Sequence record: OR352955.1
DNA: 64,000 nucleotides
Source: Escherichia phage AV125
Direction: 5' to 3' (one strand)
Position 1 is the stretch's first letter. Each line of letters opens with the position of its first letter. Below are positions 22,001 to 58,354 of this stretch, one piece after another. The position numbers were made by a program, and so were the translations under genes. The notes beneath the pieces are model-generated. The model did not search any database. It had not been told where the DNA came from and saw nothing but the letters and a program-made list of their open reading frames with translations.

Positions 22001-22026
22001 GGGCGCATCAAGCGCCCTTTCTTTTT
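22001..22026 (+). terminator. intrinsic terminator (copy 1 of a repeated terminator)
   Basis: GGGCGC-atcaa-GCGCCC then TTTCTTTTT; identical hairpin at 26912. Confidence 0.65.
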
Positions 22027-22047
22027 ACATGTAGAGGATAAACAAAA

Positions 22048-22233
22048 ATGACTTTAAACGAGCTTAAAACAGCCTACAACGCAACATTAAAAATAGCTGT
22101 GCGTTACCGTGATGCGTACGGTTTTATCGCGCAGGGCGTGATCCTGGGCTTTTCTGACGATGGTTTGATCTATGTTGATGCACATCACAACAAGGTTAAA
22201 CCGGAAAACGTTATCAATATAAAATATCTTTAA
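22048..22233 (+). CDS. small early protein (61 aa)
   Basis: ORF track. Confidence 0.45.
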   Translation: MTLNELKTAYNATLKIAVRYRDAYGFIAQGVILGFSDDGLIYVDAHHNKVKPENVINIKYL

Positions 22234-22239
22234 AAGTGG

Positions 22240-22298
22240 TTGACACCATAACCGGACCTGTTAAACTGTATTACATCAGGCGGGGAATAGTTCCCCAC
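22240..22298 (+). promoter_or_regulatory. early promoter + leader stem-loop cassette 14
   Basis: TTGACA 22240; TAAACT 22262; hairpin GGGGAA-tag-TTCCCC. Confidence 0.55.
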
Positions 22299-22318
22299 CA
22301 TACAAAAAGGTAAATATT

Positions 22319-22525
22319 ATGATCACCGCAAAACAAGAAAAAATCATTATCGACGTTGCAGCCGTTGCCGCTATTGCTATTATTGGATCTTATTATGATA
22401 CCCGTTTCCCGTCGGCTATGCATGAGATCGCCGCCGTTGCATCAGTTGGCGTGCTGTTTTACGTTGGTAAACGCTATTTATCACCAATGATTAACAAGCT
22501 GACACCGTGGAAAAATAAAGGTTGA
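22319..22525 (+). CDS. small membrane protein (68 aa)
   Basis: ORF track; hydrophobic IIIDVAAVAAIAIIGSYY. Confidence 0.5.
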   Translation: MITAKQEKIIIDVAAVAAIAIIGSYYDTRFPSAMHEIAAVASVGVLFYVGKRYLSPMINKLTPWKNKG

Positions 22526-22576
22526 TCCTGTTTTACATTGTGTTATAGTTATCGTGTAGGGCGGCAATGGTGCCGC
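22522..22576 (+). promoter_or_regulatory. early promoter + leader stem-loop cassette 15
   Basis: TTGATC 22522; TATAGT 22544; hairpin GGCGGCAATGGTGCCGC. Confidence 0.5.
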
Positions 22577-22596
22577 GCCCCTTTGAGGATGCAATC

Positions 22597-22881
22597 ATGA
22601 GTAAAGCTAACACCGTGCTAATGTTTTCCCTGATTAATGATCTCGCTTACTTGTCCAACATGACGCAGGAGGGTAACACATTAACGGCAACATTCACCAA
22701 TAAGCTTGACCGAGTGATCATCATCTCACTGAAAACAGTTAGTAAAGGCTTTTACTCGTTAGCTTATCATTGGATCACCGATACCGATGAGACAAGCCAG
22801 GACTATAGCGCCCCTTTTCCTGAATCAATGGCACGGGAGATCATCGCCGCCGTTGTAAATGATGGTTTGTTTACTGCATAA
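22597..22881 (+). CDS. small early protein (94 aa)
   Basis: Start moved to ATG 22597 after GAGGATG; track start 22567 lies in the hairpin loop. Confidence 0.5.
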   Translation: MSKANTVLMFSLINDLAYLSNMTQEGNTLTATFTNKLDRVIIISLKTVSKGFYSLAYHWITDTDETSQDYSAPFPESMAREIIAAVVNDGLFTA

Positions 22882-22898
22882 ATAATTTAGAAAAAGGC

Positions 22899-22955
22899 TT
22901 GCAATCATTTTGAGATAGTGTATATTTAATTCATAGGGCGGCGGGAATAGTTCCC
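22899..22955 (+). promoter_or_regulatory. early promoter + leader stem-loop cassette 16
   Basis: TTGCAA 22899; TATATT 22921; hairpin GGGAA-tag-TTCCC. Confidence 0.5.
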
Positions 22956-22978
22956 AAAGCAAATGAGAGGATTACACG

Positions 22979-23098
22979 ATGAGCAAGTACACAGTAGAAT
23001 ACACGGTAGAAAATCCGGCAGTATCCGAAGGTAAAAAGATGACATTTGCCATCAGTATAATCGCTTTCGTTGTCACTATCTTATCAATCATCTTATAA
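22979..23098 (+). CDS. tiny membrane peptide (39 aa)
   Basis: Own translation MSKYTVEYTVENPAVSEGKKMTFAISIIAFVVTILSIIL after GAGAGGA. Confidence 0.35.
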   Translation: MSKYTVEYTVENPAVSEGKKMTFAISIIAFVVTILSIIL

Positions 23099-23108
23099 GG
23101 TGCACACC

Positions 23109-23270
23109 ATGAAAATAGCAGACATTATCAAAGAGATCGCCCTTGCCGCTGGCGTTGAGGTCGAGGAAGTGATCGCGCTCAATCTTACAGAAAACGATCT
23201 GCGCAACTATGAAGCGGAAAGCGTGAAAGCAAGCGGCGCGGTCCTGGTATATGATCCGGCTAACAAGTAA
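23109..23270 (+). CDS. small early protein (53 aa)
   Basis: Start at ATG 23109; track start 23070 would lie inside the preceding peptide gene. Confidence 0.4.
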   Translation: MKIADIIKEIALAAGVEVEEVIALNLTENDLRNYEAESVKASGAVLVYDPANK

Positions 23271-23390
23271 GGGGATAACATGAATCCGAAAGATATGCAA
23301 GCATGGAAAGGGTACGACGATCTAAGCGCCTTGCGCAATAAGTCAAGCCGTAACCTTAGACGGTTGGAAGCAAAGAAAAAGAAAAAATAG

Positions 23391-23446
23391 TTTGACAAGT
23401 CCGCGTAGTCTGGTAATATGTATCTTGTAGGGCGGCAATGGTGCCG
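23391..23446 (+). promoter_or_regulatory. early promoter + leader stem-loop cassette 17
   Basis: TTGACA 23391; TAATAT 23413; hairpin GGGCGGCAATGGTGCCGC. Confidence 0.55.
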
Positions 23447-23468
23447 CTCACAAGAAGAGAGAAAAATC

Positions 23469-23753
23469 ATGAAAATCACAAAAAGCCTGACTAATTATGC
23501 AGCACGTCGCGGATTATGTTTAACTGTTGAAAACTTAGGGAAAGAAGACTTTTTGTGTTTTTGGGAGCTTGAAAATGATTGCGAGTGGATGTTTTCTTAT
23601 TCTATCTGCGAAGATCAAAACGGTTGTTTGTTAACTTGGCGCGGTAATATCTATTTACCGGAAGAAATTAAAGAAGAGTTACCAGGTACGATCATGACAG
23701 AGAGACAGCTTAAGGAAGTGATCAATTTTGTAGGGCAAAACATTAAAAAATAA
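23469..23753 (+). CDS. small early protein (94 aa), cysteine/tryptophan-rich
   Basis: Start moved to ATG 23469; track start 23418 lies in the hairpin loop. Confidence 0.5.
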   Translation: MKITKSLTNYAARRGLCLTVENLGKEDFLCFWELENDCEWMFSYSICEDQNGCLLTWRGNIYLPEEIKEELPGTIMTERQLKEVINFVGQNIKK

Positions 23754-23754
23754 T

Positions 23755-23816
23755 TTGACAACAGGCAAACAACGTAGTAAAGTTTATTACATAGAGCGGC
23801 GGAATGGTCCACCGCT
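23755..23816 (+). promoter_or_regulatory. early promoter + leader stem-loop cassette 18
   Basis: TTGACA 23755; TAAAGT 23778; hairpin GCGGCGGAATGGTCCACCGC. Confidence 0.55.
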
Positions 23817-23838
23817 CACAACAGAAGAGAAACAAATC

Positions 23839-24009
23839 ATGATCCCGACTATGTTTTATGTATCGCGCAAAGGTCACAATATTTTTTGGTCTGAAGATTT
23901 AAATGAAGCTATGACGTTTGCCCGTGATCGTGTTGCTATCGGTGGCGTTAACATCACCGTAACCGATGAAAATGGCATTGAATACTATAACGGCAACGAT
24001 GAAGAATAA
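23839..24009 (+). CDS. small early protein (56 aa)
   Basis: Start ATG 23839 (MIPTMFYVSRKGHNIFW...); track start 23755 lies in promoter. Confidence 0.45.
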   Translation: MIPTMFYVSRKGHNIFWSEDLNEAMTFARDRVAIGGVNITVTDENGIEYYNGNDEE

Positions 24010-24015
24010 TTAATG

Positions 24016-24038
24016 AGGCGGGGGAGTATTCCCCGCCG
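24016..24038 (+). promoter_or_regulatory. intercistronic leader stem-loop with no promoter upstream
   Basis: GGCGGGGGA-gtat-TCCCCGCC immediately before RBS of 24057 gene. Confidence 0.5.
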
Positions 24039-24056
24039 TCAATAAAGAGGTAAATC

Positions 24057-24326
24057 ATGAAAATATCATTGGACGTTGCAATCAAGGCCATCGAATCCGG
24101 TTACATCCTGGTAAAAGATGATAAGGCTAAAACCGTGCACCACGTTAACAAAGAAACAGGCGAAAGCATGATCACATATAAAGCCGCCTACTTTCTCCAA
24201 TCAGTAGCAGATCCGCGCGTACAACGCCAGGTTACAGCGGCTATTGCTAAAAAATTATGTGCTTTACAGGGTATAAGTTTTAACGAGATCGCCCCGTGTT
24301 TTGACTGGTCGAGCTTGAAAAAATAG
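24057..24326 (+). CDS. small early protein (89 aa)
   Basis: ORF track. Confidence 0.5.
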   Translation: MKISLDVAIKAIESGYILVKDDKAKTVHHVNKETGESMITYKAAYFLQSVADPRVQRQVTAAIAKKLCALQGISFNEIAPCFDWSSLKK

Positions 24327-24327
24327 T

Positions 24328-24389
24328 TTGACAACAATTATAAATCGGGTAGAATGTATTTCGTAGGGCGGGGCAATAAGGCAACGCCC
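24328..24389 (+). promoter_or_regulatory. early promoter + variant leader stem-loop cassette 19
   Basis: TTGACA 24328; TAGAAT 24350; hairpin GGGCG...CGCCC. Confidence 0.5.
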
Positions 24390-24407
24390 ATTAATGAGGG
24401 TAGAATC

Positions 24408-24512
24408 ATGTTAGAGAAAATTTTCACGGTTGTAATAGTGGGCCTGGCGTTATCGGTTGGAGGGGTTGCAACTATGGCTAACATGATCCTATCTTCCCAC
24501 GGTATCGGCTAA
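24408..24512 (+). CDS. tiny membrane peptide (34 aa)
   Basis: Own translation MLEKIFTVVIVGLALSVGGVATMANMILSSHGIG. Confidence 0.3.
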   Translation: MLEKIFTVVIVGLALSVGGVATMANMILSSHGIG

Positions 24513-24522
24513 GGTGAAACAA

Positions 24523-24738
24523 ATGATCACGAATAAGACAGGTAAAACGGAATTTTTACGCGGCTTGCAAGTTGGTAAACCTGAGATCTGGCATTGTACT
24601 AAATCCGCGCATAATGAAATGAAAGATTTTACCGCTACTTTACAACGTGTTAAAATATCTATCACACAGAAAAAAGCCTTGTTAGTAGTAGAAAACGAGA
24701 TCCCGCAAACTATTATTATTGTCGAGCGTACAGCATGA
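24523..24738 (+). CDS. small early protein (71 aa)
   Basis: Track ORF 24514 (GTG) shortened to ATG 24523 after AAGGTG. Confidence 0.45.
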   Translation: MITNKTGKTEFLRGLQVGKPEIWHCTKSAHNEMKDFTATLQRVKISITQKKALLVVENEIPQTIIIVERTA

Positions 24739-25121
24739 AAACAGAAATCATTATTGAAATCATCAACGGTTATAAAGAAGCCTTTATTTTTGCTGAATCA
24801 GCAAGGGATCATGAAGGTAATTTTATTGAAAACTTAGACGATTATGATTTTTCTCCTAGCGCGGACGAACGGATCGCCCAGGATGTAACAGCCTTTATTA
24901 ATGCTAATCTTGCCGCTATCTCTGAGGCAATGAGCGACGGCGCAACAGCCAACCAGATCGGGAATGATTTACATTTTACCCGTAACGGTCACGGCGTAGG
25001 CTTTTGGGATCGCCCTGAAATATACACCACTAACACGGCGAACCGCCTAACCAATGCAGCTAAGTTTATGCCGAACGTGTCGGCTTACATTGGTGAAGAT
25101 AATTTGATTTATATTGAATAA
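24735..25121 (+). CDS. small early protein (128 aa)
   Basis: ATGA overlap with upstream gene. Confidence 0.55.
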   Translation: MKTEIIIEIINGYKEAFIFAESARDHEGNFIENLDDYDFSPSADERIAQDVTAFINANLAAISEAMSDGATANQIGNDLHFTRNGHGVGFWDRPEIYTTNTANRLTNAAKFMPNVSAYIGEDNLIYIE

Positions 25122-25127
25122 AAAGTA

Positions 25128-25183
25128 TTGACACAGATCGCCAGTGTGCTAATATTTACCACGTAGGGCGGCAATGGTGCCGC
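25128..25183 (+). promoter_or_regulatory. early promoter + leader stem-loop cassette 20
   Basis: TTGACA 25128; TAATAT 25150; hairpin GGGCGGCAATGGTGCCGCC. Confidence 0.55.
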
Positions 25184-25202
25184 CGATAATGAGGAAAGTA
25201 AA

Positions 25203-25510: not shown

Positions 25511-25526
25511 GGGGCGGCAACGCCCC
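25511..25526 (+). promoter_or_regulatory. intercistronic GNRA-type stem-loop
   Basis: GGGGCG-gcaa-CGCCCC, no T-run; precedes RBS of 25547 gene. Confidence 0.45.
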
Positions 25527-25546
25527 ACATCAGAAAGGAAAAGATT

Positions 25547-25783
25547 ATGAGTATTGCAACAGTATTAAACGCCGTTAAAACCGCTGAATCATCCGGCTTG
25601 CATGTTGAGCTTATAGATCAACCAGGTGGCGATCTCCTTGTCCAGGTTTACCCGCCGAAAGTAGGGGATGATTATTATTGGGCTTATTCTGATACGTTCG
25701 AACAAGTAGACACGAAAGCGATCACGGCTTTTATTTTAAAAGCTATTGAAGAAAATAACTTTCATCATAACATCAATCAATAA
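25547..25783 (+). CDS. small early protein (78 aa)
   Basis: ORF track. Confidence 0.5.
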   Translation: MSIATVLNAVKTAESSGLHVELIDQPGGDLLVQVYPPKVGDDYYWAYSDTFEQVDTKAITAFILKAIEENNFHHNINQ

Positions 25784-25792
25784 ACCATAAGC

Positions 25793-25808
25793 GGGGCGGT
25801 AACGCCCC
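25793..25808 (+). promoter_or_regulatory. intercistronic GNRA-type stem-loop
   Basis: GGGGCG-gtaa-CGCCCC, no T-run; precedes 25838 gene. Confidence 0.45.
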
Positions 25809-26436: not shown

Positions 26437-26480
26437 TTGACACCGGATCACGCTTACACTATTATTTATCACGTAGGGCA
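26437..26480 (+). promoter_or_regulatory. early promoter with conserved leader start but no stem-loop (cassette 21)
   Basis: TTGACA 26437; TATTAT 26460; TATCACGTAGGGC leader. Confidence 0.5.
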
Positions 26481-26511
26481 AACAATTTTAAACGGTAAAC
26501 GAGGAATCACC

Positions 26512-26895
26512 ATGAGCAATATCATCAACCTGGCAGCGACTGTAAACGGTAAAGACTTTAACGGCGCTGTAGACCGTGATCCTATGTGGTGCTTGTCAGT
26601 GTTTAAAGGCGATCTGGTTGAAGTTAGAACAACCGAAGGTTATAGCGATGATTATAAATGCGAGATTCATTTACATAATTGGTACACGGGTAAAACTTAT
26701 GCGCTGAATCACGCGTTTATCGGGAAAATTGAATATCGCGAGATGATCGACGATGAAACGGGGCAAGATTTTAGCGAAAACGTTTATATTCGTTCCGAGA
26801 CATTAGCCGAACGTTTGATCGAGAAAATGAAAGCAAAAAATAAAATTAATTTATCTCATTGGATTGATATAACAAATGATCCGGCTTATCAGTAA
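26512..26895 (+). CDS. hypothetical protein (127 aa)
   Basis: Start moved to ATG 26512 after GAGGAA; track start 26437 is the TTG of the -35 box. Confidence 0.55.
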   Translation: MSNIINLAATVNGKDFNGAVDRDPMWCLSVFKGDLVEVRTTEGYSDDYKCEIHLHNWYTGKTYALNHAFIGKIEYREMIDDETGQDFSENVYIRSETLAERLIEKMKAKNKINLSHWIDITNDPAYQ

Positions 26896-26911
26896 ATAAC
26901 ATTTCATACCA

Positions 26912-26937
26912 GGGCGCATCAAGCGCCCTTTCTTTTT
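26912..26937 (+). terminator. intrinsic terminator (copy 2 of repeated terminator)
   Basis: GGGCGC-atcaa-GCGCCC then TTTCTTTTT, identical to 22001-22026. Confidence 0.65.
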
Positions 26938-28091: not shown

Positions 28092-28120
28092 ATACGAATG
28101 ATAATTATTCTCATTCGTAT
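28092..28120. promoter_or_regulatory. operator-like inverted repeat sharing the ATGAGAA/TTCTCAT half-site
   Basis: ATACGAATGA-taattattc-TCATTCGTAT; related AATCATTCTCAT at 27924-27935. Confidence 0.45.
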
Positions 28121-28456
28121 GATATTTGGGAATTGTCGCTGCGTGGACCTGACGGCCCGAAAATTCGCGTTAAGCACTTCTTACGTATGCGCCATGATTT
28201 TTGCCATATGATATTGATTCTATTAGATATTCTTGCCATGATTGCCATGAAACAGGGTGTCCCGAAATAATCTCTCCCCGTAGATATTTTGGGTTACTTT
28301 TTATACAAGAGTGGGGTGTCAAAAATAATCGGTATATATAGGATAATTGATAGGAATCCCCTATGATAATTCGATTGTAATTCCCTAAGATTGATCGTAT
28401 GATGTTGGTGATTGATGATTGCCATGAAAGATGGCTAACGATGAGAGGAGATTGTC

Positions 28457-32074: not shown

Positions 32075-32374
32075 ATGAATCTGACCGAACAGTTACGCCG
32101 TATTGCAAAAGAAGCTTCCTTCAACTTCCCTGTTGAAGAAGTGATCGAGACATGTTTTGCTGAAGCACGAGCGGGAAACTCTTCAAGAAATTTCACGCCA
32201 TCTGATTTTGGTCTGGATAATTCCCCTACCCACCCAGGGGAGATCTACAATCAGGTGAAGTGGATGGATGAAGCAGTAGCAATTCTTCGTGAGCGTGGGC
32301 TTATTGTTTATAAAGAAATGGATCTGAACGGGGCATACGAGTGGATCACTATTGATTGGTCGGAGGTGAAATAA
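32075..32374 (+). CDS. hypothetical protein (99 aa)
   Basis: AAAGGAGAA upstream. Confidence 0.55.
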   Translation: MNLTEQLRRIAKEASFNFPVEEVIETCFAEARAGNSSRNFTPSDFGLDNSPTHPGEIYNQVKWMDEAVAILRERGLIVYKEMDLNGAYEWITIDWSEVK

Positions 32375-32583
32375 TGGTTACTATCACATTGACAGTTACA
32401 CAAGAGCAAGCAGAAGAATTACGTGATGCAGTGGCATACATGGGACGCTCTTATTATATGCCTTATAAATCACAAGATGTTTTTGCTACAGCCATTGAGA
32501 AAGCTTTAAACAAATATCGAGAAACTCATGCCGTTCCTAAAGTATCGGCGGAAGAGTTTGGCACTTGGCACGAAGTTCACTGA
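32374..32583 (+). CDS. hypothetical protein (69 aa)
   Basis: Start ATG 32374 after GGAGGTG; TAATG overlap. Confidence 0.45.
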   Translation: MVTITLTVTQEQAEELRDAVAYMGRSYYMPYKSQDVFATAIEKALNKYRETHAVPKVSAEEFGTWHEVH

Positions 32584-32593
32584 GGAGGTTTCG

Positions 32594-32827
32594 ATGAAAG
32601 GTAACAAGATGAAAGTTAATCAAGTGCCGAGCGCATACACTTTGTGGCTTGCGCGAGCGTTACACCAGACGATCAAAAACCCTAAGAAGCCAATGAAGAG
32701 CGGGAAGAAGTTTATGTCTAAGGGCAAAACAACCTTTGGCTTCACTCGTATGTCTGTTAAGATGAAAAGACTGGGGTACAAGCCAAACTACGCTCGTTAC
32801 CCTTCTGAATACAACTGGTTTGACTAA
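32594..32827 (+). CDS. small basic protein (77 aa)
   Basis: Start ATG 32594 after GAGGAGG; lysine/arginine-rich. Confidence 0.45.
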   Translation: MKGNKMKVNQVPSAYTLWLARALHQTIKNPKKPMKSGKKFMSKGKTTFGFTRMSVKMKRLGYKPNYARYPSEYNWFD

Positions 32828-32840
32828 AAGGAGGAAGATT

Positions 32841-33017
32841 ATGGCTACTTTTCAACAATTGAAAGATGTTTCACGTTTAGTAAGAAAAATCCGAGAAGCA
32901 GACGCTGCTGTGCGGAATGCATTAACGCCAGCAGAGCGTGAAGATCTTGAAGAGGAGGTTAAAACAGCCGAGAATGCTTTTGCTGTGTATCTTTCAACAC
33001 TGTACACAGGGGGTTAA
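32841..33017 (+). CDS. hypothetical protein (58 aa)
   Basis: Start ATG 32841 after AAAGGAGGAAG. Confidence 0.4.
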   Translation: MATFQQLKDVSRLVRKIREADAAVRNALTPAEREDLEEEVKTAENAFAVYLSTLYTGG

Positions 33018-33332
33018 ATGTCAGAAGAACTTAAAGAATTTTATCAAGCCTATCATAATTGGCTGTTAGCTGGTGCTCCAGATAATAATCCTTTCTGGCA
33101 CGATAAAGGTTTGTGCAGTTGCCTCTATCTTTGGTCTGGTGGTTATGATGACCTAAATTATGAAATGCAAATGCAATTTCGAGAAGCAGGATTGTCTGAA
33201 GAATACCCGTTTGATGACGGAGACTGGTTTAAATATGATTTTGCACAAAGAAACGGGCTATTGCATTTGAATGCTGCCCGTATAAGATGGGTAAAAGATC
33301 ATGCTACACAGGAGGATGTGCAATGCCAATAG
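33018..33332 (+). CDS. paralog family A member 3 (104 aa)
   Basis: FYQAYHNWLLAGAPDNNPF..GLCSCL..EMQMQF..AGL..PF....RIRWVKDH. Confidence 0.6.
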   Translation: MSEELKEFYQAYHNWLLAGAPDNNPFWHDKGLCSCLYLWSGGYDDLNYEMQMQFREAGLSEEYPFDDGDWFKYDFAQRNGLLHLNAARIRWVKDHATQEDVQCQ

Positions 33333-33523
33333 TGTTTAGTTTCTTGGTAATTGTTATGGTTGTTCTTTTCGCGGCATGGCTTTGGGATTTTGACCCAGGA
33401 GCAGCGCAGCAAAGAGCTACAGACTGGAAAGAACAATGTATTGTGCTCAAACATGAACGAAATGCAGAGAAATTTCTTGACCTGGAGTGTGATCGCCTTG
33501 TAAGATACAAGCAAGACAAATAA
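33323..33523 (+). CDS. small membrane-anchored protein (66 aa)
   Basis: Start ATG 33323; MPIVFSFLVIVMVVLFAAWLW transmembrane helix. Confidence 0.45.
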   Translation: MPIVFSFLVIVMVVLFAAWLWDFDPGAAQQRATDWKEQCIVLKHERNAEKFLDLECDRLVRYKQDK

Positions 33524-33537
33524 CCTTGAGGTGCAAA

Positions 33538-33726
33538 ATGGTAATTGAGATTAAACTTGAGTATGCTGGCGCTGTTGCTCTGATCGCACAAATGCTTGGA
33601 GCAAAGATTGAAGAAGTGTATATCAACGCTTGGAGCGTAGAGATTGATGTTCCTATGGACAACATTGCTAATCGCTTGCTGGTGGCAGAGTGTGAACGCA
33701 CCAACATAATCTACAAAGGAGCATAA
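33538..33726 (+). CDS. hypothetical protein (62 aa)
   Basis: Start ATG 33538 after GAGGTG. Confidence 0.4.
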   Translation: MVIEIKLEYAGAVALIAQMLGAKIEEVYINAWSVEIDVPMDNIANRLLVAECERTNIIYKGA

Positions 33727-33727
33727 T

Positions 33728-33949
33728 ATGAAAATTAGAGTTTGTGATGTATTGGGTTATGTTGGTTTTGAGAATGTTCAGATTCCTTTTGTTGTTGAAG
33801 CACATCTTGTTAGTGAGGATATGACAACATTCTTTGTTACGATAGAAGAAATGTCCAAAGTTGAGGGATGGGAGTGGTTTGAAGAAGATGTTTGGGAAGG
33901 TTGTGATTACGTATTCTTCTCTGATGAAGTGAATGTTCTTTCGGAGTAG
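33728..33949 (+). CDS. hypothetical protein (73 aa)
   Basis: ORF track; AAGGAG upstream. Confidence 0.5.
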   Translation: MKIRVCDVLGYVGFENVQIPFVVEAHLVSEDMTTFFVTIEEMSKVEGWEWFEEDVWEGCDYVFFSDEVNVLSE

Positions 33950-33951
33950 GT

Positions 33952-34158
33952 ATGTCTTGTTTTACAAAAGCAGTATCCATATGTAAGAAACAGTATGAAA
34001 GTGATTACGGAATATTTAATATTCCAGCGGATCATACAGAGTATTGTTCATGTGGTGGCAGAATGAAGAAAACAGTGATTTATGCGGATAATGGAGATGA
34101 ACTTGTTCCGGTTATTGTTTGCAAAGCTTGTCATTCTGTTAAAACATTAAAAGCGTAA
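33952..34158 (+). CDS. zinc-ribbon protein (68 aa)
   Basis: CSCGG...CKAC cysteine pairs. Confidence 0.45.
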   Translation: MSCFTKAVSICKKQYESDYGIFNIPADHTEYCSCGGRMKKTVIYADNGDELVPVIVCKACHSVKTLKA

Positions 34159-34253
34159 GGAGTCGGGACACCCGACGATTGGAGCTAAAAATTTTGCGTA
34201 CAACCCTTTTCGCCCAACAGGGGCGCGTCGGGTAAATAAAGAGGAGAGTTTAT

Positions 34254-34652
34254 ATGAAAAAGATCATCGTAGGTTTCTTGTTACTCATTGCATCACTTGG
34301 AACAGCAAATGCGTCTCAAGTTTATGAGTGTGTGTCAGATGTGGTTGTTAAAAATCTGAAAGGTGAAGTGATTTCTGGTCCTAAGAAAATGGCTTCTGTT
34401 GTCATTAATAAAGATAACTCCTTTATCCTTAAAAATTCAGGCGGTGCTTTGATGAGTGGCATTCTGCAATACACAGGAGAAAAAAGTAAAGATGGTAGTG
34501 CTATGTACGGTTCACAACAATTTATTGGCACTACTGAAGTTGTGATGATGCGCACAGAGTATCGAGACACTTTGGCTTGGTTTGCATTTCTAAAAAATGA
34601 TAAAACAATAACGAATGTTCTTACTCTAGAAGCTGATTGTACGCAACGATAA
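34254..34652 (+). CDS. predicted secreted protein (132 aa)
   Basis: Signal-peptide-like MKKIIVGFLLLIASLGTANA. Confidence 0.55.
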   Translation: MKKIIVGFLLLIASLGTANASQVYECVSDVVVKNLKGEVISGPKKMASVVINKDNSFILKNSGGALMSGILQYTGEKSKDGSAMYGSQQFIGTTEVVMMRTEYRDTLAWFAFLKNDKTITNVLTLEADCTQR

Positions 34653-34662
34653 GGGAGTATTT

Positions 34663-35109
34663 ATGACTAAAGTGCGACATTATGCTGTAAACTGCAATGA
34701 TGTTTGGCGTTTGTGTCCTGATGATCCGACAGAAGGCACATTTGTAAGATATGAGGATTATAAAGAGTTATCGGATGCTGTGATCGCATTGTTAACTGAT
34801 ATCCGTTCACGTTATCCAGGACAAGATTTCACTTGCCCTCACATCAAACTTCTTGCTTGTCTGGTAGAAGGTGAGAAAGAAGTGGAAGATGGCTTCAAGC
34901 GTGTAGAGTATCAAGGTGAAACTTTAGAGGTTCCTGAATTTGTTAATTATATTGCAACAGATTCGAGTGGCGAGCGTTATGGCTACAGCCATAAGCCAGA
35001 GATTCCTGATTGGATTCCCGCTTGGAGATATTCCGTTAGTACCGGAGACTATATCTTCCTTGGTGTAGGTAGTAGTAAGGATTGGCGTTTCTCTTTGACA
35101 GAGGTTTAA
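34663..35109 (+). CDS. hypothetical protein (148 aa)
   Basis: ORF track; AAGGGAG upstream. Confidence 0.55.
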   Translation: MTKVRHYAVNCNDVWRLCPDDPTEGTFVRYEDYKELSDAVIALLTDIRSRYPGQDFTCPHIKLLACLVEGEKEVEDGFKRVEYQGETLEVPEFVNYIATDSSGERYGYSHKPEIPDWIPAWRYSVSTGDYIFLGVGSSKDWRFSLTEV

Positions 35110-35113
35110 TAAT

Positions 35114-35377
35114 ATGGAAGAAACATTGCCAGCAGCATATCGTTTGAATGATGAGCGTATTTGGGAGTGGACCGACGTTTCTTGTTTTTACCCTGAAATA
35201 GTTCAATATTGGCGAGCGAAAGGGTGTGTTGTAGTTATCAACCCTTGTGGACCAGTAGATGAAGATTGCTTGTATCTCGATGGGAAGTGGCACAGTTATT
35301 GTCGCTGGGCTTTTGAGTGGATGTGTAAAGAAGATCTCCCAGAGGGTTGGGAGTATCCAAAAGCAAATAGGAGATAA
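35114..35377 (+). CDS. hypothetical protein (87 aa)
   Basis: ORF track. Confidence 0.5.
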   Translation: MEETLPAAYRLNDERIWEWTDVSCFYPEIVQYWRAKGCVVVINPCGPVDEDCLYLDGKWHSYCRWAFEWMCKEDLPEGWEYPKANRR

Positions 35378-35378
35378 T

Positions 35379-35741
35379 ATGTCTAAAGATTTTGTTGAAG
35401 TATTTGTCAAAGATGAAGAAACTGGTTTAGGCACGGGTTTCATTTGTGAAGAAACTTTTAAGCGTGAACAAGAAAAAGCTATTCTTATGCACCGCTATGA
35501 TCATGCATTAGAACAATGGAAAAATGCAGAACAAAAATGCAAAAACCTTTATGCAGAAAATAGAAAACTACAAGATCAAATGGAGTTGTTAGCTATCAGT
35601 TTACGATCTCTCATTTTGGCTGTAGAAGACGGTTTTAAAAATCCAGATGGTTTTCCTGTGAGCGATATTGAACATGATTTGTATCTTGCTCGTGGTGCTT
35701 ACTTTTATGTTAAACAGAAGTCTGTAGAAGGAGAGAAGTGA
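35379..35741 (+). CDS. hypothetical protein (120 aa), predicted coiled coil
   Basis: Track ORF 35259 shortened to ATG 35379 after TAGGAGA, removing overlap with 35114 gene. Confidence 0.5.
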   Translation: MSKDFVEVFVKDEETGLGTGFICEETFKREQEKAILMHRYDHALEQWKNAEQKCKNLYAENRKLQDQMELLAISLRSLILAVEDGFKNPDGFPVSDIEHDLYLARGAYFYVKQKSVEGEK

Positions 35742-35938
35742 TGGAAGAAAAACTGGAACGTATTATCGAGTTAGCCATGTCTATTGGCTACGACGATTGT
35801 TTTCTCCAAACTATTGGAGAAACACAGAACGATTACGACTCTTGGGTGAAAGAGTTGGAAGAACTCAAAACTTCCTTGATTGCTGACTTTGCTGAAGCAG
35901 AGGATAAAGCGGATCGTTACAACTATCTGTGTCGATAA
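35738..35938 (+). CDS. hypothetical protein (66 aa)
   Basis: ATGA overlap. Confidence 0.45.
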   Translation: MMEEKLERIIELAMSIGYDDCFLQTIGETQNDYDSWVKELEELKTSLIADFAEAEDKADRYNYLCR

Positions 35939-35941
35939 ACC

Positions 35942-35969
35942 TTGACATTTCTTTTATGTATGGTATACA
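35942..35969 (+). promoter_or_regulatory. sigma70-type promoter
   Basis: TTGACA 35942 - 16 nt - TATACA 35964. Confidence 0.4.
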
Positions 35970-36000
35970 TACATTATCAACGTGAGCAAGGTGGTGTAAT

Positions 36001-36273
36001 ATGAATAAAGATCGGTTTCTTTCTTTAGTCGCGGAAGCGCCTTTTGATGTTCTTGGGGTGAGATTATGGAAAGACAGAAACTATGGGTTAGATGTTCAAA
36101 CATATTCTCTTTGGTTGGTTGGGGAGCACAGCTTAGATGAAAGCTTGTGCATGGGTAGGGATTCTCGTTCCCTTTGTTTAAAGTTTAGAAGCTTAGAACG
36201 CGCAAACAAAGAGCAAGAAAAACTAACGAGGTGGCTAAATGAAAACAAGCGCAGGGTTGATGGAGTTTTATAA
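36001..36273 (+). CDS. hypothetical protein (90 aa)
   Basis: ORF track; AAGGTGG upstream. Confidence 0.5.
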   Translation: MNKDRFLSLVAEAPFDVLGVRLWKDRNYGLDVQTYSLWLVGEHSLDESLCMGRDSRSLCLKFRSLERANKEQEKLTRWLNENKRRVDGVL

Positions 36274-36565
36274 AATTTATCTAGCATGGATTGATGTTGG
36301 TGCTCCTGATGGTAAACCTTTTCGGCGGGATTGTGGTTTGTGTGCCAACTTGTTCGATTATGTGCACAGAGGTAATTACAATCCCCTTATAACAACCTTG
36401 TCAGATGAAATGCACGCACAGTTTTACCACAAAGGGTTGAGTCAAGAATTACCCTTCAATGAGAACTACGATGCATATGTCTTAGAATCAGATGCAGGGG
36501 TATGTCACCTGAACGTGGACAGGATTAATTGGGTAAGAGATCGTATTGCAGAGGAGGATGAATAA
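36239..36565 (+). CDS. paralog family A member 4 (108 aa)
   Basis: FYKIYLAWIDVGAPDGKPF..GLCANL..EMHAQF..GL..PFN...CHLNVDRINWVRDRI. Confidence 0.55.
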   Translation: MKTSAGLMEFYKIYLAWIDVGAPDGKPFRRDCGLCANLFDYVHRGNYNPLITTLSDEMHAQFYHKGLSQELPFNENYDAYVLESDAGVCHLNVDRINWVRDRIAEEDE

Positions 36566-36792
36566 TGTCGGATTATAACTGGTATGAACTTGAAGCTGTT
36601 TGTCAGTTTTATGATTCAATAGTTCTGCGTGATCCAATCTGTCAAGAATTAAGTCGCCGTGCAAGTGCATTGGCAATCCGTGTTAAAATAAACGGTTGGA
36701 ACGCAGATTTGGAAAAAGAGTTGGCATTTCTCTTAGAAAACACGCGGGTCTTCCGCAAAGTGTTCCCTGAATGGTTTGAGATGGAGGAATAA
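36565..36792 (+). CDS. hypothetical protein (75 aa)
   Basis: ORF track. Confidence 0.5.
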   Translation: MSDYNWYELEAVCQFYDSIVLRDPICQELSRRASALAIRVKINGWNADLEKELAFLLENTRVFRKVFPEWFEMEE

Positions 36793-36794
36793 CC

Positions 36795-37327: not shown

Positions 37328-37381
37328 CAGAAGGATCTGTCTTTGTCATAATCATCTCATCGAAACAGAGAGGAGAAAATC

Positions 37382-38149: not shown

Positions 38150-38159
38150 GGAGAAAAGA

Positions 38160-43024: not shown

Positions 43025-43037
43025 TCCAGGAGAAGAT

Positions 43038-45605: not shown

Positions 45606-45627
45606 AACCCGCTTCGGCGGGTTTTTT
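45606..45627 (+). terminator. intrinsic terminator
   Basis: AACCCGC-ttcg-GCGGGTT then TTTTTT. Confidence 0.7.
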
Positions 45628-45924: not shown

Positions 45925-45957
45925 AAAAGGCACCCACTTGGGTGCCTTTGTTTTATT
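45925..45957. terminator. bidirectional intrinsic terminator at convergence of plus and minus blocks
   Basis: GGCACCC-actt-GGGTGCC flanked by AAAA upstream and TTTGTTTTATT downstream. Confidence 0.65.
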
Positions 45958-46225
45958 CTTCGTTAGATTGCGTCTCAGACGCGTTAAATTCGGTTTCAGT
46001 ACAACTTGCTAGGTAACTTATATTTTGCATCACTACAACTACAGGTGTTTGAAGTTTATCTTCTAGCCCCGCAGCCACTTGAGCCAAGGCATTATCAATA
46101 TTTGATTTCCTAACGCCTGTTCCATGTCCTGTTGCCAAGTAAAGATTACCTTCCCCTTTTTGTGTAGCATTGGCAAAGTAGTAAACGTAATGTGCAAGGT
46201 AGTAATCACGGATTTCTTCAGTCAT
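45953..46225 (-). CDS. hypothetical protein (90 aa)
   Basis: ORF track; AGGAGA upstream on minus strand. Confidence 0.5.
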   Translation of the reverse strand: MTEEIRDYYLAHYVYYFANATQKGEGNLYLATGHGTGVRKSNIDNALAQVAAGLEDKLQTPVVVVMQNISYLASCTETEFNASETQSNEE

Positions 46226-46243: not shown

Positions 46244-46261
46244 AAGGGGCCGAAGCCCCTT
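46244..46261 (-). terminator. stem-loop (terminator/attenuator), copy 1 of repeated hairpin
   Basis: AAGGGGC-cgaa-GCCCCTT; identical at 58337-58354. Confidence 0.45.
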
Positions 46262-46268: not shown

Positions 46269-47084
46269 TTATTTGTTTAAGTGGTCTTCGACCATTTTAA
46301 TGAAACCTTCATTGCTGAAGGCTGTTGCAGCTTTTTCTCGGTAAACAAAAACTCCACGATCTTCATAGAGAAGTGTTTCTTCGTAATTAACTCCAGGGTT
46401 AACTACAACCATTTTTGTACCCATACTAAGTGCAGGAAATAATTCCCAATTAAAATTGATAACTTGGTTTGAACATCCTACTACTACAACCAAATCTTGC
46501 ATGGTCAAAGTATCGAACAAGTGAGCCATATCTGCATACAAAGGTGCAGCCTCACCAAAAAATACAACATTAGGCTTCACCCAGTTATAATCATCTATGT
46601 TTATACTATTGTAACCAATATCTACCAGTGTTTTGTAATCTCCAGGATGCATACGGTAAACTACTTCAGGAAGATATCCGTGTACGTGAATAACAGAATC
46701 TCTGTCTACACCTGCTCGCTCTAGCAGATCATCAACGTTTGTTGTCAAGTTTACTATTTGGTTAGGATATTCCTTAAACCACTTTGCTATTTGAATATGT
46801 GCAGCATTAGGTTGTACATCTTTAAGCTCAACACGTCTTTTGTTATAAAATTCGTGTGTTTTGGCATACAAATCCATACCGTTCTCGTCTACACCACCGA
46901 CCACTGGAAGATCTGGAGATGTTCTAACACGATAACCTGCTTGGAAAGCTCCAATATCGCAGACCTCTTCTAAATCATATTCTTCCCATAAAGCACGACC
47001 ACTATCTGTGTCTGTTCTAAATGTTCGAATCCCACTGTCTGCACTTAAACCTGCACCGCTTACAAAAATCACTCGTCTTGGCAT
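46269..47084 (-). CDS. Sir2-like (sirtuin family) NAD-dependent protein
   Basis: 271 aa; N-terminal FVSGAGLSADSGIRTFR, central HG, FFGE match the sirtuin NAD-binding signature as remembered. Confidence 0.7.
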   Translation of the reverse strand: MPRRVIFVSGAGLSADSGIRTFRTDTDSGRALWEEYDLEEVCDIGAFQAGYRVRTSPDLPVVGGVDENGMDLYAKTHEFYNKRRVELKDVQPNAAHIQIAKWFKEYPNQIVNLTTNVDDLLERAGVDRDSVIHVHGYLPEVVYRMHPGDYKTLVDIGYNSINIDDYNWVKPNVVFFGEAAPLYADMAHLFDTLTMQDLVVVVGCSNQVINFNWELFPALSMGTKMVVVNPGVNYEETLLYEDRGVFVYREKAATAFSNEGFIKMVEDHLNK

Positions 47085-50340: not shown

Positions 50341-50362
50341 AAAAAACCCGCCGAAGCGGGTT
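50341..50362 (-). terminator. intrinsic terminator
   Basis: AACCCGC-cgaa-GCGGGTT with T-run on minus strand. Confidence 0.6.
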
Positions 50363-55869: not shown

Positions 55870-56287
55870 CTAAAATCTCCTCTTTTGTAATATTATCCAA
55901 CTCTTTAAAGGATGAAATCTCGTTTAATAATCCTATTTGATCAGCTTCTAGCGGATAAGTGTTTTTATCTGTTTTTCTAGACAGAATATCTTCAACAAAC
56001 TTATCAATAGCCAAAGAAGAATCATAAAATTTTAAAAGTTGGTAATCCATAGGAGATATTTTGTCATCTCTTAGAAATATTTCTAACATGTTTTCAGGAG
56101 TATCGTGGTTTAGTTTATGTTCACCAAAAATATTAACTTCGTAAACATCTTTGCCAAACCAACGTTTCTTCTTTTCAACAGTATAGGTTTTTGCCACCAG
56201 ACCATCTAAACAGTTTCTTGCCCTCTTACATGTTTGACGGTAAGAGTGGATAGCGCCTTCAACAAACTTAGCAGGAACTTGTAACAT
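55853..56287 (-). CDS. hypothetical protein (144 aa)
   Basis: ORF track. Confidence 0.5.
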   Translation of the reverse strand: MLQVPAKFVEGAIHSYRQTCKRARNCLDGLVAKTYTVEKKKRWFGKDVYEVNIFGEHKLNHDTPENMLEIFLRDDKISPMDYQLLKFYDSSLAIDKFVEDILSRKTDKNTYPLEADQIGLLNEISSFKELDNITKEEILDGIRL

Positions 56288-56311
56288 TATTAATCTCCTA
56301 TGTTTAAGAAA

Positions 56312-56327
56312 TGCCCCCGAAGGGGCA
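56312..56327 (-). terminator. intrinsic terminator
   Basis: TGCCCC-cgaa-GGGGCA downstream of 56333 stop. Confidence 0.5.
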
Positions 56328-56332
56328 GTTTG

Positions 56333-57025
56333 TTAAATAGCGGTTCCTTCGAAATCCGCCACATTTACGAGATTAATATTTTCAGATTTAGAAGTCAAGT
56401 TGTTTTCTGCAACAGATTTTTCTTCAGTATCCGCCTCGTTACCTGCCACGTTACGAGGTTCTTCTTCACCGTAGGGATTACCGAATTTCAAAAGATTGAT
56501 CAATTCTTCTTTGGAGAAGTTTTCTAAATCATCGTCTGTTAATTCAATAATCTCGTCTTGTTCTTCAATAAATGTTTCACCACCAGAAAAAGCATCTCGC
56601 TTTTTAGCTACTTCCATAGCTTGTTCTGGTGTTGCCCCTGCGTCAAGAGCAGCTAAAGCAAAGTCTGACCCACTTCCTACTGCATAATATTCTTCATCAA
56701 TCGGATATGCACGTGTTGGGTTGTTACCTTCGTGCAAGAAAATACGTCCGTCTGGATGAACAACAAGTGCAATAAACTCTTCATCTTCTTTATCTGGATC
56801 AGAGTGAATCATCAAACCAGGGACAGCATCACGTGCTGCTTCGCACTGTAGATTTTGTTCAAACCATTGAAAGAAAGAAAGCACGGAGGTCAGACGACCA
56901 GCACCACCTACAAGGTAATCTCCAATTTTTCGGACCTTTTTGAAATTAATAGAATCTACACGTCCACCAAAAGTTACCTTACCATCACTCAAAATCTTAT
57001 TTTTGGTTGCAATAATTGTCGTCAC
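56333..57025 (-). CDS. HslV-like Ntn-hydrolase peptidase with acidic C-terminal extension
   Basis: 230 aa, GTG start; N-terminal TTIIATKNK...GRVDSINFKKVRKIG..GGAGR and AVGSGSDFALAA parallel HslV as remembered. Confidence 0.65.
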   Translation of the reverse strand: MTTIIATKNKILSDGKVTFGGRVDSINFKKVRKIGDYLVGGAGRLTSVLSFFQWFEQNLQCEAARDAVPGLMIHSDPDKEDEEFIALVVHPDGRIFLHEGNNPTRAYPIDEEYYAVGSGSDFALAALDAGATPEQAMEVAKKRDAFSGGETFIEEQDEIIELTDDDLENFSKEELINLLKFGNPYGEEEPRNVAGNEADTEEKSVAENNLTSKSENINLVNVADFEGTAI

Positions 57026-57528
57026 TATTCTTCCTCCTCTGTTAATGTTTTAAGAACCGCTTTCCCGCCATTCACATATTTGCAGATGTATTCTATCGCA
57101 CGTAGTGTCTCTTTGTCAACAAAAATTTGATCAGACGTTGCGAGCGGGTTATTAAGAAGATCACTACAATCACGAACAAGCAGTGCTTTCTTATTAAACA
57201 AATTACTTAAGAACAGTAACTTCGCCTCTTCTTCTGTTATGTGCAGAAGACTGGGATCGGAGCCAGCTATTCCTATTATACAATCAAACAAGCTTTCTTT
57301 ACTATCAGAAAGTTCTTGAAAATGGTTTAAAAGCCAATCTTCTCCTAGACACCAACATTTAAACATTTCCAGTTTATCTCGGAGGGTCATATTCTCTAAA
57401 GTAAGAGCAATCTCTTTTTCAATATGGTTTACACAAATTTGACGAAATTCGTTAGGTTTTACGAGTCCCGTTTGATAGCACTCATCTATACCGCTTCTTC
57501 CGATAGCTATTGTTGCTACACCCATCAA
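57025..57528 (-). CDS. hypothetical protein (167 aa)
   Basis: ORF track. Confidence 0.55.
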   Translation of the reverse strand: MMGVATIAIGRSGIDECYQTGLVKPNEFRQICVNHIEKEIALTLENMTLRDKLEMFKCWCLGEDWLLNHFQELSDSKESLFDCIIGIAGSDPSLLHITEEEAKLLFLSNLFNKKALLVRDCSDLLNNPLATSDQIFVDKETLRAIEYICKYVNGGKAVLKTLTEEEE

Positions 57529-57560
57529 TCCTCCTTATAAATGGCTTCCCTGCCACATTA

Positions 57561-58319
57561 TTAAATAAACACTTCAGTAATCAGTTTAGACAAACGTCCA
57601 CGTTTATTATCGTCCGTTGTCAGTTCAACGTATCCAATAAAATCTACAATTGGTTCACGAACACCTTCTTCATTTTCTGGATATAAAAGTTCCAAAATTT
57701 GATGCAGACCATTGCTACGTTTTTTAATTGCATATGTCTGGCGAACATCGCCTAATACAATAACATGCGTATTAATACCTGCACGTTCAATAAGAAGTTT
57801 AAGTGTTTCTGTTGACATAAGTTGTGCTTCGTCAATAATGACGATTGTATTATCCAGGGTAGCCCCCAACAAATAGTTAGGAATATTCAATTCGATCTTA
57901 CCTGATCCAATATCGTTTTCCAATTTGTTGGCTGTCATGAATTGCTGGAAAATACGTTTTGTAGATTCATAGTGTGCTGCTAGTTTATCTGTTTTATCCC
58001 CAGACAAGAAACCAATCTGGTCATCTCCGACTTCAGTAGGGTTCTTGATAAAAAGTAGTTTACGGAAGTCTCCTGAACGAAGCATCTGCAAAGCTTTCCA
58101 TAAAGCAACAGAGGTTTTACCAGTCCCTGCCGGAGCATTTACAACAGTCAGATCATTCCAGATCATGCTTTGAACAATCTTATTTTGGTCCCCTTCAGGC
58201 ATAAATTCATCTAAACGGTAATCGTCATTACCTACCGCTTTTGCTGCATAACGGCTTTCAATCTTTGCTGAATTAGCCAGTTTCTGCCGTTGTGTTTTAG
58301 CTGCGGTTTTATTTCCCAT
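57561..58319 (-). CDS. phoH: PhoH-like ATPase
   Basis: Start ATG 58319 after AAGGAG (track start 58370 overlaps lysozyme gene); Walker A NAPAGTGKTS, Walker B IIDEAQ. Confidence 0.8.
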   Translation of the reverse strand: MGNKTAAKTQRQKLANSAKIESRYAAKAVGNDDYRLDEFMPEGDQNKIVQSMIWNDLTVVNAPAGTGKTSVALWKALQMLRSGDFRKLLFIKNPTEVGDDQIGFLSGDKTDKLAAHYESTKRIFQQFMTANKLENDIGSGKIELNIPNYLLGATLDNTIVIIDEAQLMSTETLKLLIERAGINTHVIVLGDVRQTYAIKKRSNGLHQILELLYPENEEGVREPIVDFIGYVELTTDDNKRGRLSKLITEVFI

Positions 58320-58336
58320 AGTAGCACTCCTTTTAG

Positions 58337-58354
58337 AAGGGGCCGAAGCCCCTT
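58337..58354 (-). terminator. stem-loop between lysozyme and phoH (copy 2 of repeated hairpin)
   Basis: AAGGGGC-cgaa-GCCCCTT identical to 46244-46261. Confidence 0.45.

Follow-up and report, generated by a model that had tools for sequence, protein, structure and literature searches.

A probable shuffled terminator module and a probable generic tetraloop design behind the repeated hairpins of Escherichia phage AV125

The repeated hairpins analyzed here lie in a stretch of 64,000 nucleotides (nt) from Escherichia phage AV125 (sequence record OR352955.1), to which we refer in full as the window, and their closest described counterparts are the promoter-early stem-loops (PeSLs) of T4-like phages. 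PeSLs are repeated cassettes of a promoter and a stem-loop in hyperplastic regions, built as composites of ~100 bp and present in about 50 copies (Arbiol et al., 2010, PMC2839356; Comeau et al., 2014, PMC4122927). ORFans (orphan open reading frames, ORFs) between two copies are lost, gained or exchanged when the copies recombine, and a single chimeric copy stays behind (PMC2839356; PMC4122927). Mini-circles excised with one chimeric copy are a further mark of PeSLs. The window contains two pairs of identical hairpins, pair A (copies A1 and A2) and pair B (copies B1 and B2), which can also be compared to morons, to the tetraloop hairpins of phage T4 and to the Rho-independent terminators of E. 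coli. Morons, as reportedly defined by Hendrix and colleagues, are accessory genes that a phage carries together with a promoter and a terminator specific to them; the descriptions come from lambdoid temperate phages, where morons are inserted between core genes. C(UUCG)G tetraloop hairpins are said to have been found in intercistronic regions of phage T4 by Tuerk et al. in 1988.

A sequence-only reading of the window had pointed to both pairs, labeled all four copies as terminators and proposed a modular shuffling of regulatory elements, unless the hairpins belonged to longer duplicated coding sequence. Both repeats are exact. Pair A, with GGGCGC starting at 22001 and 26912, is a 27-nt identity (AGGGCGCATCAAGCGCCCTTTCTTTTT, 22000-22026 and 26911-26937, both on the + strand) that extends to 29 of 30 nt over a wider span (21997-22026 and 26908-26937), and pair B is an 18-nt identity (AAGGGGCCGAAGCCCCTT, 46244-46261 and 58337-58354). 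An origin within longer duplicated coding sequence is ruled out, since all four copies are intergenic and the 60 nt on each side are unrelated in alignments, both within pair A and within pair B. We consider it likely that the two pairs have separate explanations, pair A representing a shuffled terminator module and pair B a generic stable RNA design. The phenomenon is a known kind of system in another phage lineage, not a new mechanism.

The window belongs to a Phapecoctavirus (Stephanstirmvirinae), a phAPEC8-like group of E. coli myoviruses with genomes of ~150 kb. Pair A is located in a rightward run of tiny genes (17-27 kb of the window) with a sigma-70-like promoter at most of them and, for many, a conserved stem-loop immediately 3' of the -10 element. 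The surrounding 20-30 kb are a mosaic whose top match, phage ukendt, shows 96.6% identity in five pieces. Pair B is located in the 44-64 kb region, which is 99.3-99.5% identical to phages phAPEC8_ev052 (hereafter ev052) and ESCO13; from 46 to 64 kb the window is a section of a long block of genes read leftward, for nucleotide metabolism and accessory functions.

The A hairpins and cassette junctions in relatives

Both A modules consist of a GC stem of 7-8 bp, a 5-nt loop and a U-rich tail (UUUCUUUUU in both copies), with the tail TTTCTTTTT on the same strand as the adjoining genes. The RNA of A1 folds at -14.7 kcal/mol (z = -6.6 against shuffles) and that of A2 at -13.8 kcal/mol (z = -4.4). 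No match to AGGGCGCATCAAGCGCCCTTTCTTTTT was found in 100 dinucleotide-preserving shuffles of the sequence, even with three mismatches allowed. Both copies are flagged in a terminator scan of the window and are annotated as terminators by ARNold in the phAPEC8 reference. A1 begins 8 nt past the stop at 21992 and A2 16 nt past the stop at 26895. The terminator label of the sequence-only reading fits A1 and A2, with their U-tract and the ARNold calls in phAPEC8, and doubtful for B2, which has no U-tract on the sense strand and received no ARNold call. Like the Rho-independent terminators of E. coli, A1 and A2 (and the two hairpins of a third pair at 45606 and 50362, discussed below) combine a GC stem, a short loop and a U-rich tail (at least 6/9); unlike them, B2 has no U-tract, B1 has a weak one, and A1 would need to allow read-through for expression of the gene 3' of it. 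Judging from its surroundings, A1 is probably a leaky terminator: the gene that follows begins 21 nt past the module with no promoter-like site in between (the nearest ones are at 21773-21800 and 22240-22267), and because this gene has no promoter of its own, A1 would have to leak if the gene is expressed.

Ten relatives were compared over the A region (ukendt, KKP 3954, ESCO5, ev052, Mt1B1_P17, anhysbys, PNJ1809-36, Paula, phAPEC8, and SF1-1). The A-type hairpin has two to three paralogous copies per genome, all inside the variable early region near small genes of unknown function, and every copy in the 11 genomes has a GGGCGC/GCGCCC stem, an A-N-N-A-A loop and a leader of the ACAA or ACCA type. 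A search for a host origin gave no match in 5,426 E. coli genomes, and the exact 27-nt module has no match in IMG/VR. When the loop was left free, 39 matches were found in IMG/VR, mostly in unrelated lineages whose loops are different (CTTGT, CTAGT, or CTCGA, for example). Stem and tail alone are therefore no proof of homology, because several unrelated lineages have both, and their combination can result from convergence. The loop pattern and the leader are common to the copies of this phage group, and the loops of the unrelated lineages are quite different, which argues that the A copies are homologous paralogues of one terminator module.

The relatives differ in what lies between these copies. 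We describe each site by its left flank (L), hairpin (H), and right flank (R). The window, KKP 3954 and ukendt have the arrangement La-H-Ra ... Lb-H-Rz. In phAPEC8, ev052, Mt1B1_P17, and PNJ1809-36 the arrangement is La-H-Ra ... Lc-H-Rc, gp246, Ld-H-Rz, which is also that of ESCO5, though without the A1 site. Phage anhysbys has La-H-Ra ... Lc-H-Rz. The single hairpin at the latter junction of anhysbys has the left flank of the middle copy (Lc), and its version of the hairpin (with an extra G and the loop ACCAA) and its right flank (120 of 120 nt aligned) match the last copy; 565 bp between the copies, with gp246 and one hairpin, are missing. Phage nepoznato has the same contiguous Lc-H-Rz junction with 96.5% identity. 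The direction of this change is likely a deletion between direct repeats, because more than 20 genomes carry the gp246 cassette, the divergent phiWec181 among them.

A replacement is seen directly to the left of A2. In many relatives, homology to the window stops at 26479-26486, just past a promoter-like site, and resumes at 26908-26912, the point of the first base of A2. The phAPEC8-type genomes encode gp247 and gp246 in place of the 127-aa (amino acids) protein of the T4 gp30.8 family that is found here in the window. Since homology is lost and regained at these two points, different genes share the same left promoter and the same right terminator (A2). At the other copy, Shigella phage SF1-1 carries a deletion. 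Its homology to the window runs up to 22017, the final base of the A1 stem, and picks up again at 22578. The junction coincides with GCGCCC, 6 nt of microhomology to the 3' side of a stem-loop that accompanies a promoter, and the T-tail of the hairpin is gone. The A cassettes are framed by promoter-like sites (21773-21800, 22240-22267, and 26437-26465). The cargo genes 5' of A1 and A2 belong to families common to T7 and T4, i.e., to very different phage groups.

The near-identical GNRA-loop hairpins at 25511 and 25793, which have no U-tract on the + strand, form an independent second case of a hairpin-flanked cassette. In ukendt and anhysbys 282 bp are missing, namely the spacer (25527-25792, with the 78-aa gene) and one copy of the hairpin; the one hybrid hairpin that is left has the flank and loop of the left copy and the flank of the right copy.

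In the combined reading, which we regard as probable, A is a homologous terminator module that acts as recombination homology, and the B sites are ancient generic tetraloop hairpins. In the variable early region, the A module would stand at the end of small cassettes of early genes, and its copies, ~25-30 bp of near-identical DNA in direct orientation, would supply short homology for recombination. Loss of a cassette between two copies would leave one hybrid hairpin, and exchange would attach different cassettes to one hairpin and its right flank. The 27-nt identity of A1 and A2 could derive from common descent and strong constraint on stem and tail, with two variable loop positions only; gene conversion may contribute to it. 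Sequences, positions, predicted folds, patterns of conservation and the structure of the junctions are observed; from them we infer that the hairpins terminate transcription or stabilize RNA and that the junctions arose by recombination.

The A module resembles PeSLs in several respects. It is a short repeated GC-rich stem-loop, terminating or attenuating by prediction, in a hyperplastic region of small ORFans; where one genome has a cassette between two A-type copies, a close relative has one chimeric copy instead, and the same element is joined to unrelated genes. Two features by which PeSLs are recognized are thus present, namely junctions in a repeated element with one chimeric copy left (at the A family and at 25511/25793) and a concentration of the repeats near ORFans, at a copy number far below ~50. 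Unlike a PeSL, the A module is a stand-alone terminator of ~27-30 bp in two to three copies per genome, and its lineage, the rV5-like Stephanstirmvirinae, is unrelated to T4-like phages. A promoter scan found no promoter within or adjoining A1 or A2, so the module is not a PeSL-type composite.

The window does contain separate cassettes of a promoter and a stem-loop (17-25 kb), which are closer to PeSLs than the A module. At least 13 promoter-like TTGACA-16-TAnnnT elements are present on the + strand at 17200-25200, each with a conserved stem-loop directly after it (for example GCGGCAATGGTGCCGC) and then a ribosome-binding site; these cassettes are much nearer to T4-type PeSLs than the A terminators are. 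ESCO5 is without the segment corresponding to 20560-24317 of the window, and both ends of this deletion adjoin such cassettes.

Morons offer a second comparison. The gp30.8-family gene, between a sigma-70-like promoter (26437-26465) and A2 and replaced in relatives, is moron-like, as is the 78-aa gene (25547-25783), which is present or absent as a unit. Unlike morons, these cassettes stand among early accessory genes of a myovirus that is virulent, and what is repeated at their junctions is the terminator itself.

None of the papers in the library that we searched connects PeSLs or PeSL-type shuffling to rV5-like, phi92-like or Phapecoctavirus phages, and the literature searches yielded no transcriptome of this phage group. 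If the proposed role of the A module is correct, the PeSL idea, in which hairpins insulate accessory genes and give homology for their gain, loss, or swap, would apply beyond T4-like phages. The rV5-like Stephanstirmvirinae are widely used in phage therapy collections, and in their genomes the hairpins would predict natural indel sites and a probable tolerance of engineered insertions.

Pair B and other UUCG hairpins between genes

Both copies of pair B adjoin minus-strand genes, and on that strand the RNA reads AAGGGGC-UUCG-GCCCCUU, a C(UUCG)G tetraloop hairpin. Matches to AAGGGGCCGAAGCCCCTT average 0.02 in dinucleotide-preserving shuffles, none of which contained two, a null that takes no account of hairpin function. 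Among the matches listed, the exact 18-mer occurs in more than 120 IMG/VR contigs with a GC content from 0.21 to 0.65, only three of them with substantial similarity to the window; most copies have a T-run behind them. No other stem is as frequent as GGGGC among the UUCG hairpins sampled: it forms the inner stem of 27-29% of the C(UUCG)G hairpins in unrelated phage DNA (7/26 in a pool of 1.08 Mb and 5/17 in 210 kb of loci ascertained through B). For CCCGC, the 210 kb pool gave 0/5, an estimate that is uninformative because the pool is too small. The phAPEC8 genome contains nine UUCG hairpins, with the stems ACCCGC (three times), AAGGGGC (twice) and AAGGGC (once) among them. With about 8-9 UUCG hairpins per genome and a GGGGC share of 27-29%, a GGGGC repeat has a better than even chance of arising with no duplication needed. 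The sequence of pair B thus appears to be a generic, repeatedly re-invented design.

The sites themselves seem to be old. In phiWec181, phi92, Citrobacter phage Tr1 and six IMG/VR loci, the B spacers contain an AGGGGC/GCCCCU stem between the same genes. The loops at these orthologous sites, in relatives with a PhoH identity of 70-100%, are UUCG, UACG, GCAA, GUAA, GAAA, or GUCAU: at B1, orthologues combine this stem with UACG or GAAA, and the B2 orthologues keep the stem with UUCG, GCAA, GUAA, GAAA, or GUCAU. We found no trace of shuffling or mobility of the B sites in any of these relatives. The B sites appear to be ancient and syntenically fixed in the whole subfamily; the RNA structure is conserved, and stability seems to be all that is required of its loop. 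The proposed modular shuffling is therefore supported for pair A, a paralogous module at which relatives have lost or replaced cassettes, and not for pair B, with its fixed syntenic sites and its generic 18-mer.

B1 and B2 differ in what they may do. B1 begins 8 nt past the stop of the Sir2-family gene and is followed by a weak or marginal U-tract (UCUUAUU); it is predicted to be a weak terminator at best, and probably an attenuator or an mRNA-stabilizing hairpin. B2 begins 2 nt past the lysozyme stop (minus strand for both), has the tail CUAAAAGGAG and stands 5 nt upstream of the Shine-Dalgarno sequence of the PhoH-like gene. On its coding strand there is no U-tract 3' of the hairpin (CUAAAAGG), so B2 is probably no classical terminator, and in the ARNold annotation of phAPEC8 no terminator is called at B1 or B2. 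By its position and tail, B2 is more likely a hairpin that protects or attenuates at the 3' end of the mRNA than a terminator.

A location of B2 inside the PhoH coding sequence, as implied by the start annotated in ESCO13 (ATG at 58370), was considered and rejected. The start at 58319 is used in phAPEC8, phi92, phiWec181, and Tr1, and has a strong AAGGAG site with a conserved spacer; the ESCO13 start is unsupported by these four annotations and by the conserved Shine-Dalgarno sequence and ATG. We should note that the ESCO13 start would also overlap the lysozyme gene.

We found a third identical pair that had not been reported in the sequence-only reading, at 45606 and 50362 (AACCCGC-TTCG-GCGGGTT-TTTT), each copy on the coding strand of its neighbors. 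Both hairpins have a U6 tract, and both sites are conserved across genera (phiWec181, phi92). Among the matches listed, the AACCCGC 18-mer is found in more than 120 unrelated IMG/VR contigs, with a T-run following in 122 of 122 copies. These two hairpins are predicted to be true intrinsic terminators. A further AACCCGC-TTCG hairpin copy is present at 140161 in phAPEC8.

Together with 56327 on the minus strand, the hairpins B1, B2, 45606 (+), and 50362 (-) carry a UUCG loop on a Watson-Crick stem closed by C-G. The RNA folds at the hairpin sites tested range from -12.7 to -14.8 kcal/mol, with stems of 7-8 bp and 5-6 GC pairs. These five hairpins resemble the C(UUCG)G hairpins of T4 in being intergenic, in the UUCG loop closed by C-G on a GC stem and in their place between a stop codon and the next ribosome-binding site. 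Nothing is new in kind compared with T4, and relatives swap UUCG for GNRA loops at the same site; because of this alternation, stability is conserved rather than UUCG itself. Pair B and the 45606/50362 pair would then be extra-stable C(UUCG)G hairpins placed between genes, in the case of pair B within a long leftward transcription unit. Pair B calls for caution, as exact short repeats of GC tetraloop hairpins are no evidence of duplication: identical 18-mers are found in unrelated phages by the hundred.

Alternative explanations of the repeats

Several observations weigh against the combined reading and have to be set beside the junctions described above. The product expected from recombination between A1 and A2, La-H-Rz, was searched for as a synthetic junction and is absent in 50,697 phage records, so the window's own A1 and A2 are not shown to recombine with each other. 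The SF1-1 junction is supported by only 6 nt of microhomology. The identity of the A1 and A2 loops is not significant by itself, with only two variable positions and ACCAA being common. Both loops are ATCAA in the window and KKP 3954 and ACCAA in phAPEC8, Mt1B1_P17, anhysbys, and PNJ1809-36, and they differ in ukendt, ev052, and SF1-1, i.e., they are the same in six of the nine genomes with both copies. At pair B, the two UUCG loops of the window and a trio of GAAA loops in phi92, described below, hint at some copying between sites of one genome, for which the combined reading has no need.

The last of these counter-observations concerns breakpoints. The homology breakpoints between the window and the ten relatives were clustered to 36 sites. 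Six of these are located at most 5 nt from a hairpin against 2.0 expected under a uniform null (P = 0.012), and the median distance from breakpoint to hairpin is 45 nt compared to 129 nt for uniformly random positions. For an intergenic-only null the region was cut at 27 kb, which left 34 clusters, 71% of them intergenic against 28% of the bases; here, five breakpoints are found within 5 nt of a hairpin against 4.4 expected (P = 0.46). With this change in P, breakpoint enrichment at hairpins was dropped as specific evidence. A targeting of regulatory hairpins by breakpoints is statistically inseparable from breakpoints being intergenic, and the hairpins could be passive landmarks of the latter. 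Since the excess vanishes under the intergenic-only null, the specific evidence consists of the cassettes with direct-repeat flanks, not of a class-wide statistic.

If the hairpins are such passive landmarks, illegitimate recombination would occur anywhere and selection would keep the intergenic junctions; the spacers are short and largely filled by hairpins, so that junctions would look hairpin-associated, and the A copies would be alike because there are few terminator solutions. The intergenic-only null, the missing La-H-Rz product, and the short microhomology in SF1-1 all fit this explanation, as does the origin of GGGCGC-N5-GCGCCCTTTCTTTTT in several unrelated phage lineages. We nevertheless consider it unlikely, since two independent cassettes each have direct repeats of one hairpin as flanks, and the single hybrid hairpin of the relatives, with halves from both repeats, is a signature of repeat-mediated recombination and not of random breakage. 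In addition, the A paralogues share a loop pattern and a leader that are dispensable for function.

We give still less credence to a single process for all identical pairs, in which the dispersed terminator or attenuator hairpins, pair B and the other GC hairpins included, would be made alike inside each genome through short-patch gene conversion (concerted evolution) and would act as distributed recombination linkers. If true, pairs A, B and 45606/50362 as well as the phi92 trio would all be products of that process, and PeSL-type shuffling would be extended to terminator-only modules and to a lineage unrelated to T4. B1 and B2 are both UUCG in the window and in phAPEC8, and in phi92 all three GGGGC hairpins of a 28.8-kb segment (3113, 14400, and 27832, minus strand) have GAAA, which differs from UUCG at all four positions, where the Phapecoctavirus counterparts have UUCG; either a homogenization specific to this lineage or a loop preference could underlie the phi92 trio. 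The three ACCCGC-UUCG stems of phAPEC8 and the shared A1/A2 loops of six genomes can be read in the same way. The loop linked to the Lb flank varies as well (ACAAA in ukendt and Paula, ATCAA in the window and KKP 3954, ACCAA in SF1-1), which is compatible with patch conversion and no proof of it. Loop homogenization of the B-type hairpins is, however, contradicted by phiWec181, Tr1, and the IMG/VR loci L297, L298, and L301, each of which has differing loops on GGGGC hairpins inside one genome. Matches are also to be expected from a small repertoire of stable tetraloops and from an 18-mer that is common in unrelated phages, and only 7 nt of homology per arm are available beside the loop.

A role of the repeats as DNA rather than as RNA terminators (as cruciforms, or as sites for replication, packaging, homing, or recombination enzymes) is very improbable: A2 borders an ORF-poor stretch of ~1.5 kb that holds the record termini of several relatives and the phAPEC8 record begins at base 1 of A1, but record starts are conventions of the submitters, orientation and position track transcription (hairpins 3' of stop codons, with the U-tract on the correct side), loops vary freely on stems that stay paired as expected of RNA hairpins, and neither a supporting protein or site family nor an Rfam match was found.

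Feature coordinates and further observations

The features discussed above and their neighboring genes are collected in Table 1.

Table 1. Positions of the repeated hairpins, a promoter-like site, and neighboring genes in the window; functions of hairpins and genes are predictions.
Feature	Position	Strand	Basis
A1, terminator module AGGGCGC-ATCAA-GCGCCCT + TTCTTTTT	22000-22026	+	27-mer, fold, terminator scan, ARNold in phAPEC8
A2, identical terminator module, end of rightward early-gene cluster	26911-26937	+	27-mer, fold, junctions of relatives
48-aa gene 5' of A1, T7 gene 1.1 family	21846-21992	+	Pfam Phage_1_1, E = 4.9e-13
61-aa gene immediately 3' of A1	22048-22233	+	ORF, phrog_25271
Promoter-like site TTGACA-17-TATTAT, left border of the replaceable cassette ending at A2	26437-26465	+	11/12 match
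127-aa cargo gene, T4 gp30.8 family, between this promoter and A2	26512-26895	+	Pfam Phage_30_8, E = 1.8e-28
Second hairpin repeat, left copy, GGGGCG-GCAA-CGCCCC	25511-25526	+	Hairpin census
Second hairpin repeat, right copy, GGGGCG-GTAA-CGCCCC	25793-25808	+	Hairpin census
78-aa gene flanked by the second hairpin repeat	25547-25783	+	
B1 hairpin, between Sir2 and 90-aa genes; tail UCUUAUU, then AGGAGA, ATG	46244-46261	-	
B2 hairpin, between lysozyme and PhoH genes; tail CUAAA, then AGGAG, ATG at 58319	58337-58354	-	
Sir2-family gene 5' of B1	46269-47084	-	Pfam SIR2, E = 1.9e-22
90-aa gene 3' of B1	45953-46225	-	ORF, phrog_15991
T4-type lysozyme gene 5' of B2	58357-58857	-	Pfam Phage_lysozyme
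PhoH-like gene 3' of B2, ATG at 58319	57561-58319	-	Pfam PhoH, E = 1e-36
Third pair, copy 1, AACCCGC-UUCG-GCGGGUU + U-tract, between two + strand genes	45606-45627	+	Hairpin census
Third pair, copy 2, inverted, then TTGACA promoter at 50339-50311	50341-50362	-	Hairpin census; phAPEC8 orthologue called by ARNold
UUCG hairpin UGCCCC-UUCG-GGGGCA, between HslV-like gene and next gene	56312-56327	-	Compensatory stem changes in relatives

The name ‘distal tail protein Dit’ given to the homologue of the 48-aa gene in the SF1-1 record seems to be an annotation error. Directly 3' of A2, from 26938 to about 28457, ~1.5 kb without convincing ORFs are conserved in relatives. The record ends or coordinate 1 of KKP 3954, Mt1B1_P17, and ESCO5 map to about 28096-28171 of the window; these termini could represent a genome end, an origin, or a mere deposition convention.

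A scan of the whole window with Rfam 15 gave zero families at the gathering score, the repeated hairpins included, and a tRNA search of the window found none. The host labels of four related records are doubtful: Campylobacter phage B15, Acinetobacter phage ABPW7, Pseudomonas phage PsgM04F, and Klebsiella phage ZCKP1 show about 92-99.5% identity to E. coli Phapecoctavirus over the regions compared. The window also contains an AT-rich 72-nt repeat pair (16241-16312 and 16379-16450, 138 nt apart, 82% identity). Recurring coding motifs at 32249-43844, for example GATCGTGTGAACTGGGTAAAAGAACGTGTAGCA with six occurrences, suggest a paralogous gene family at 32-44 kb.

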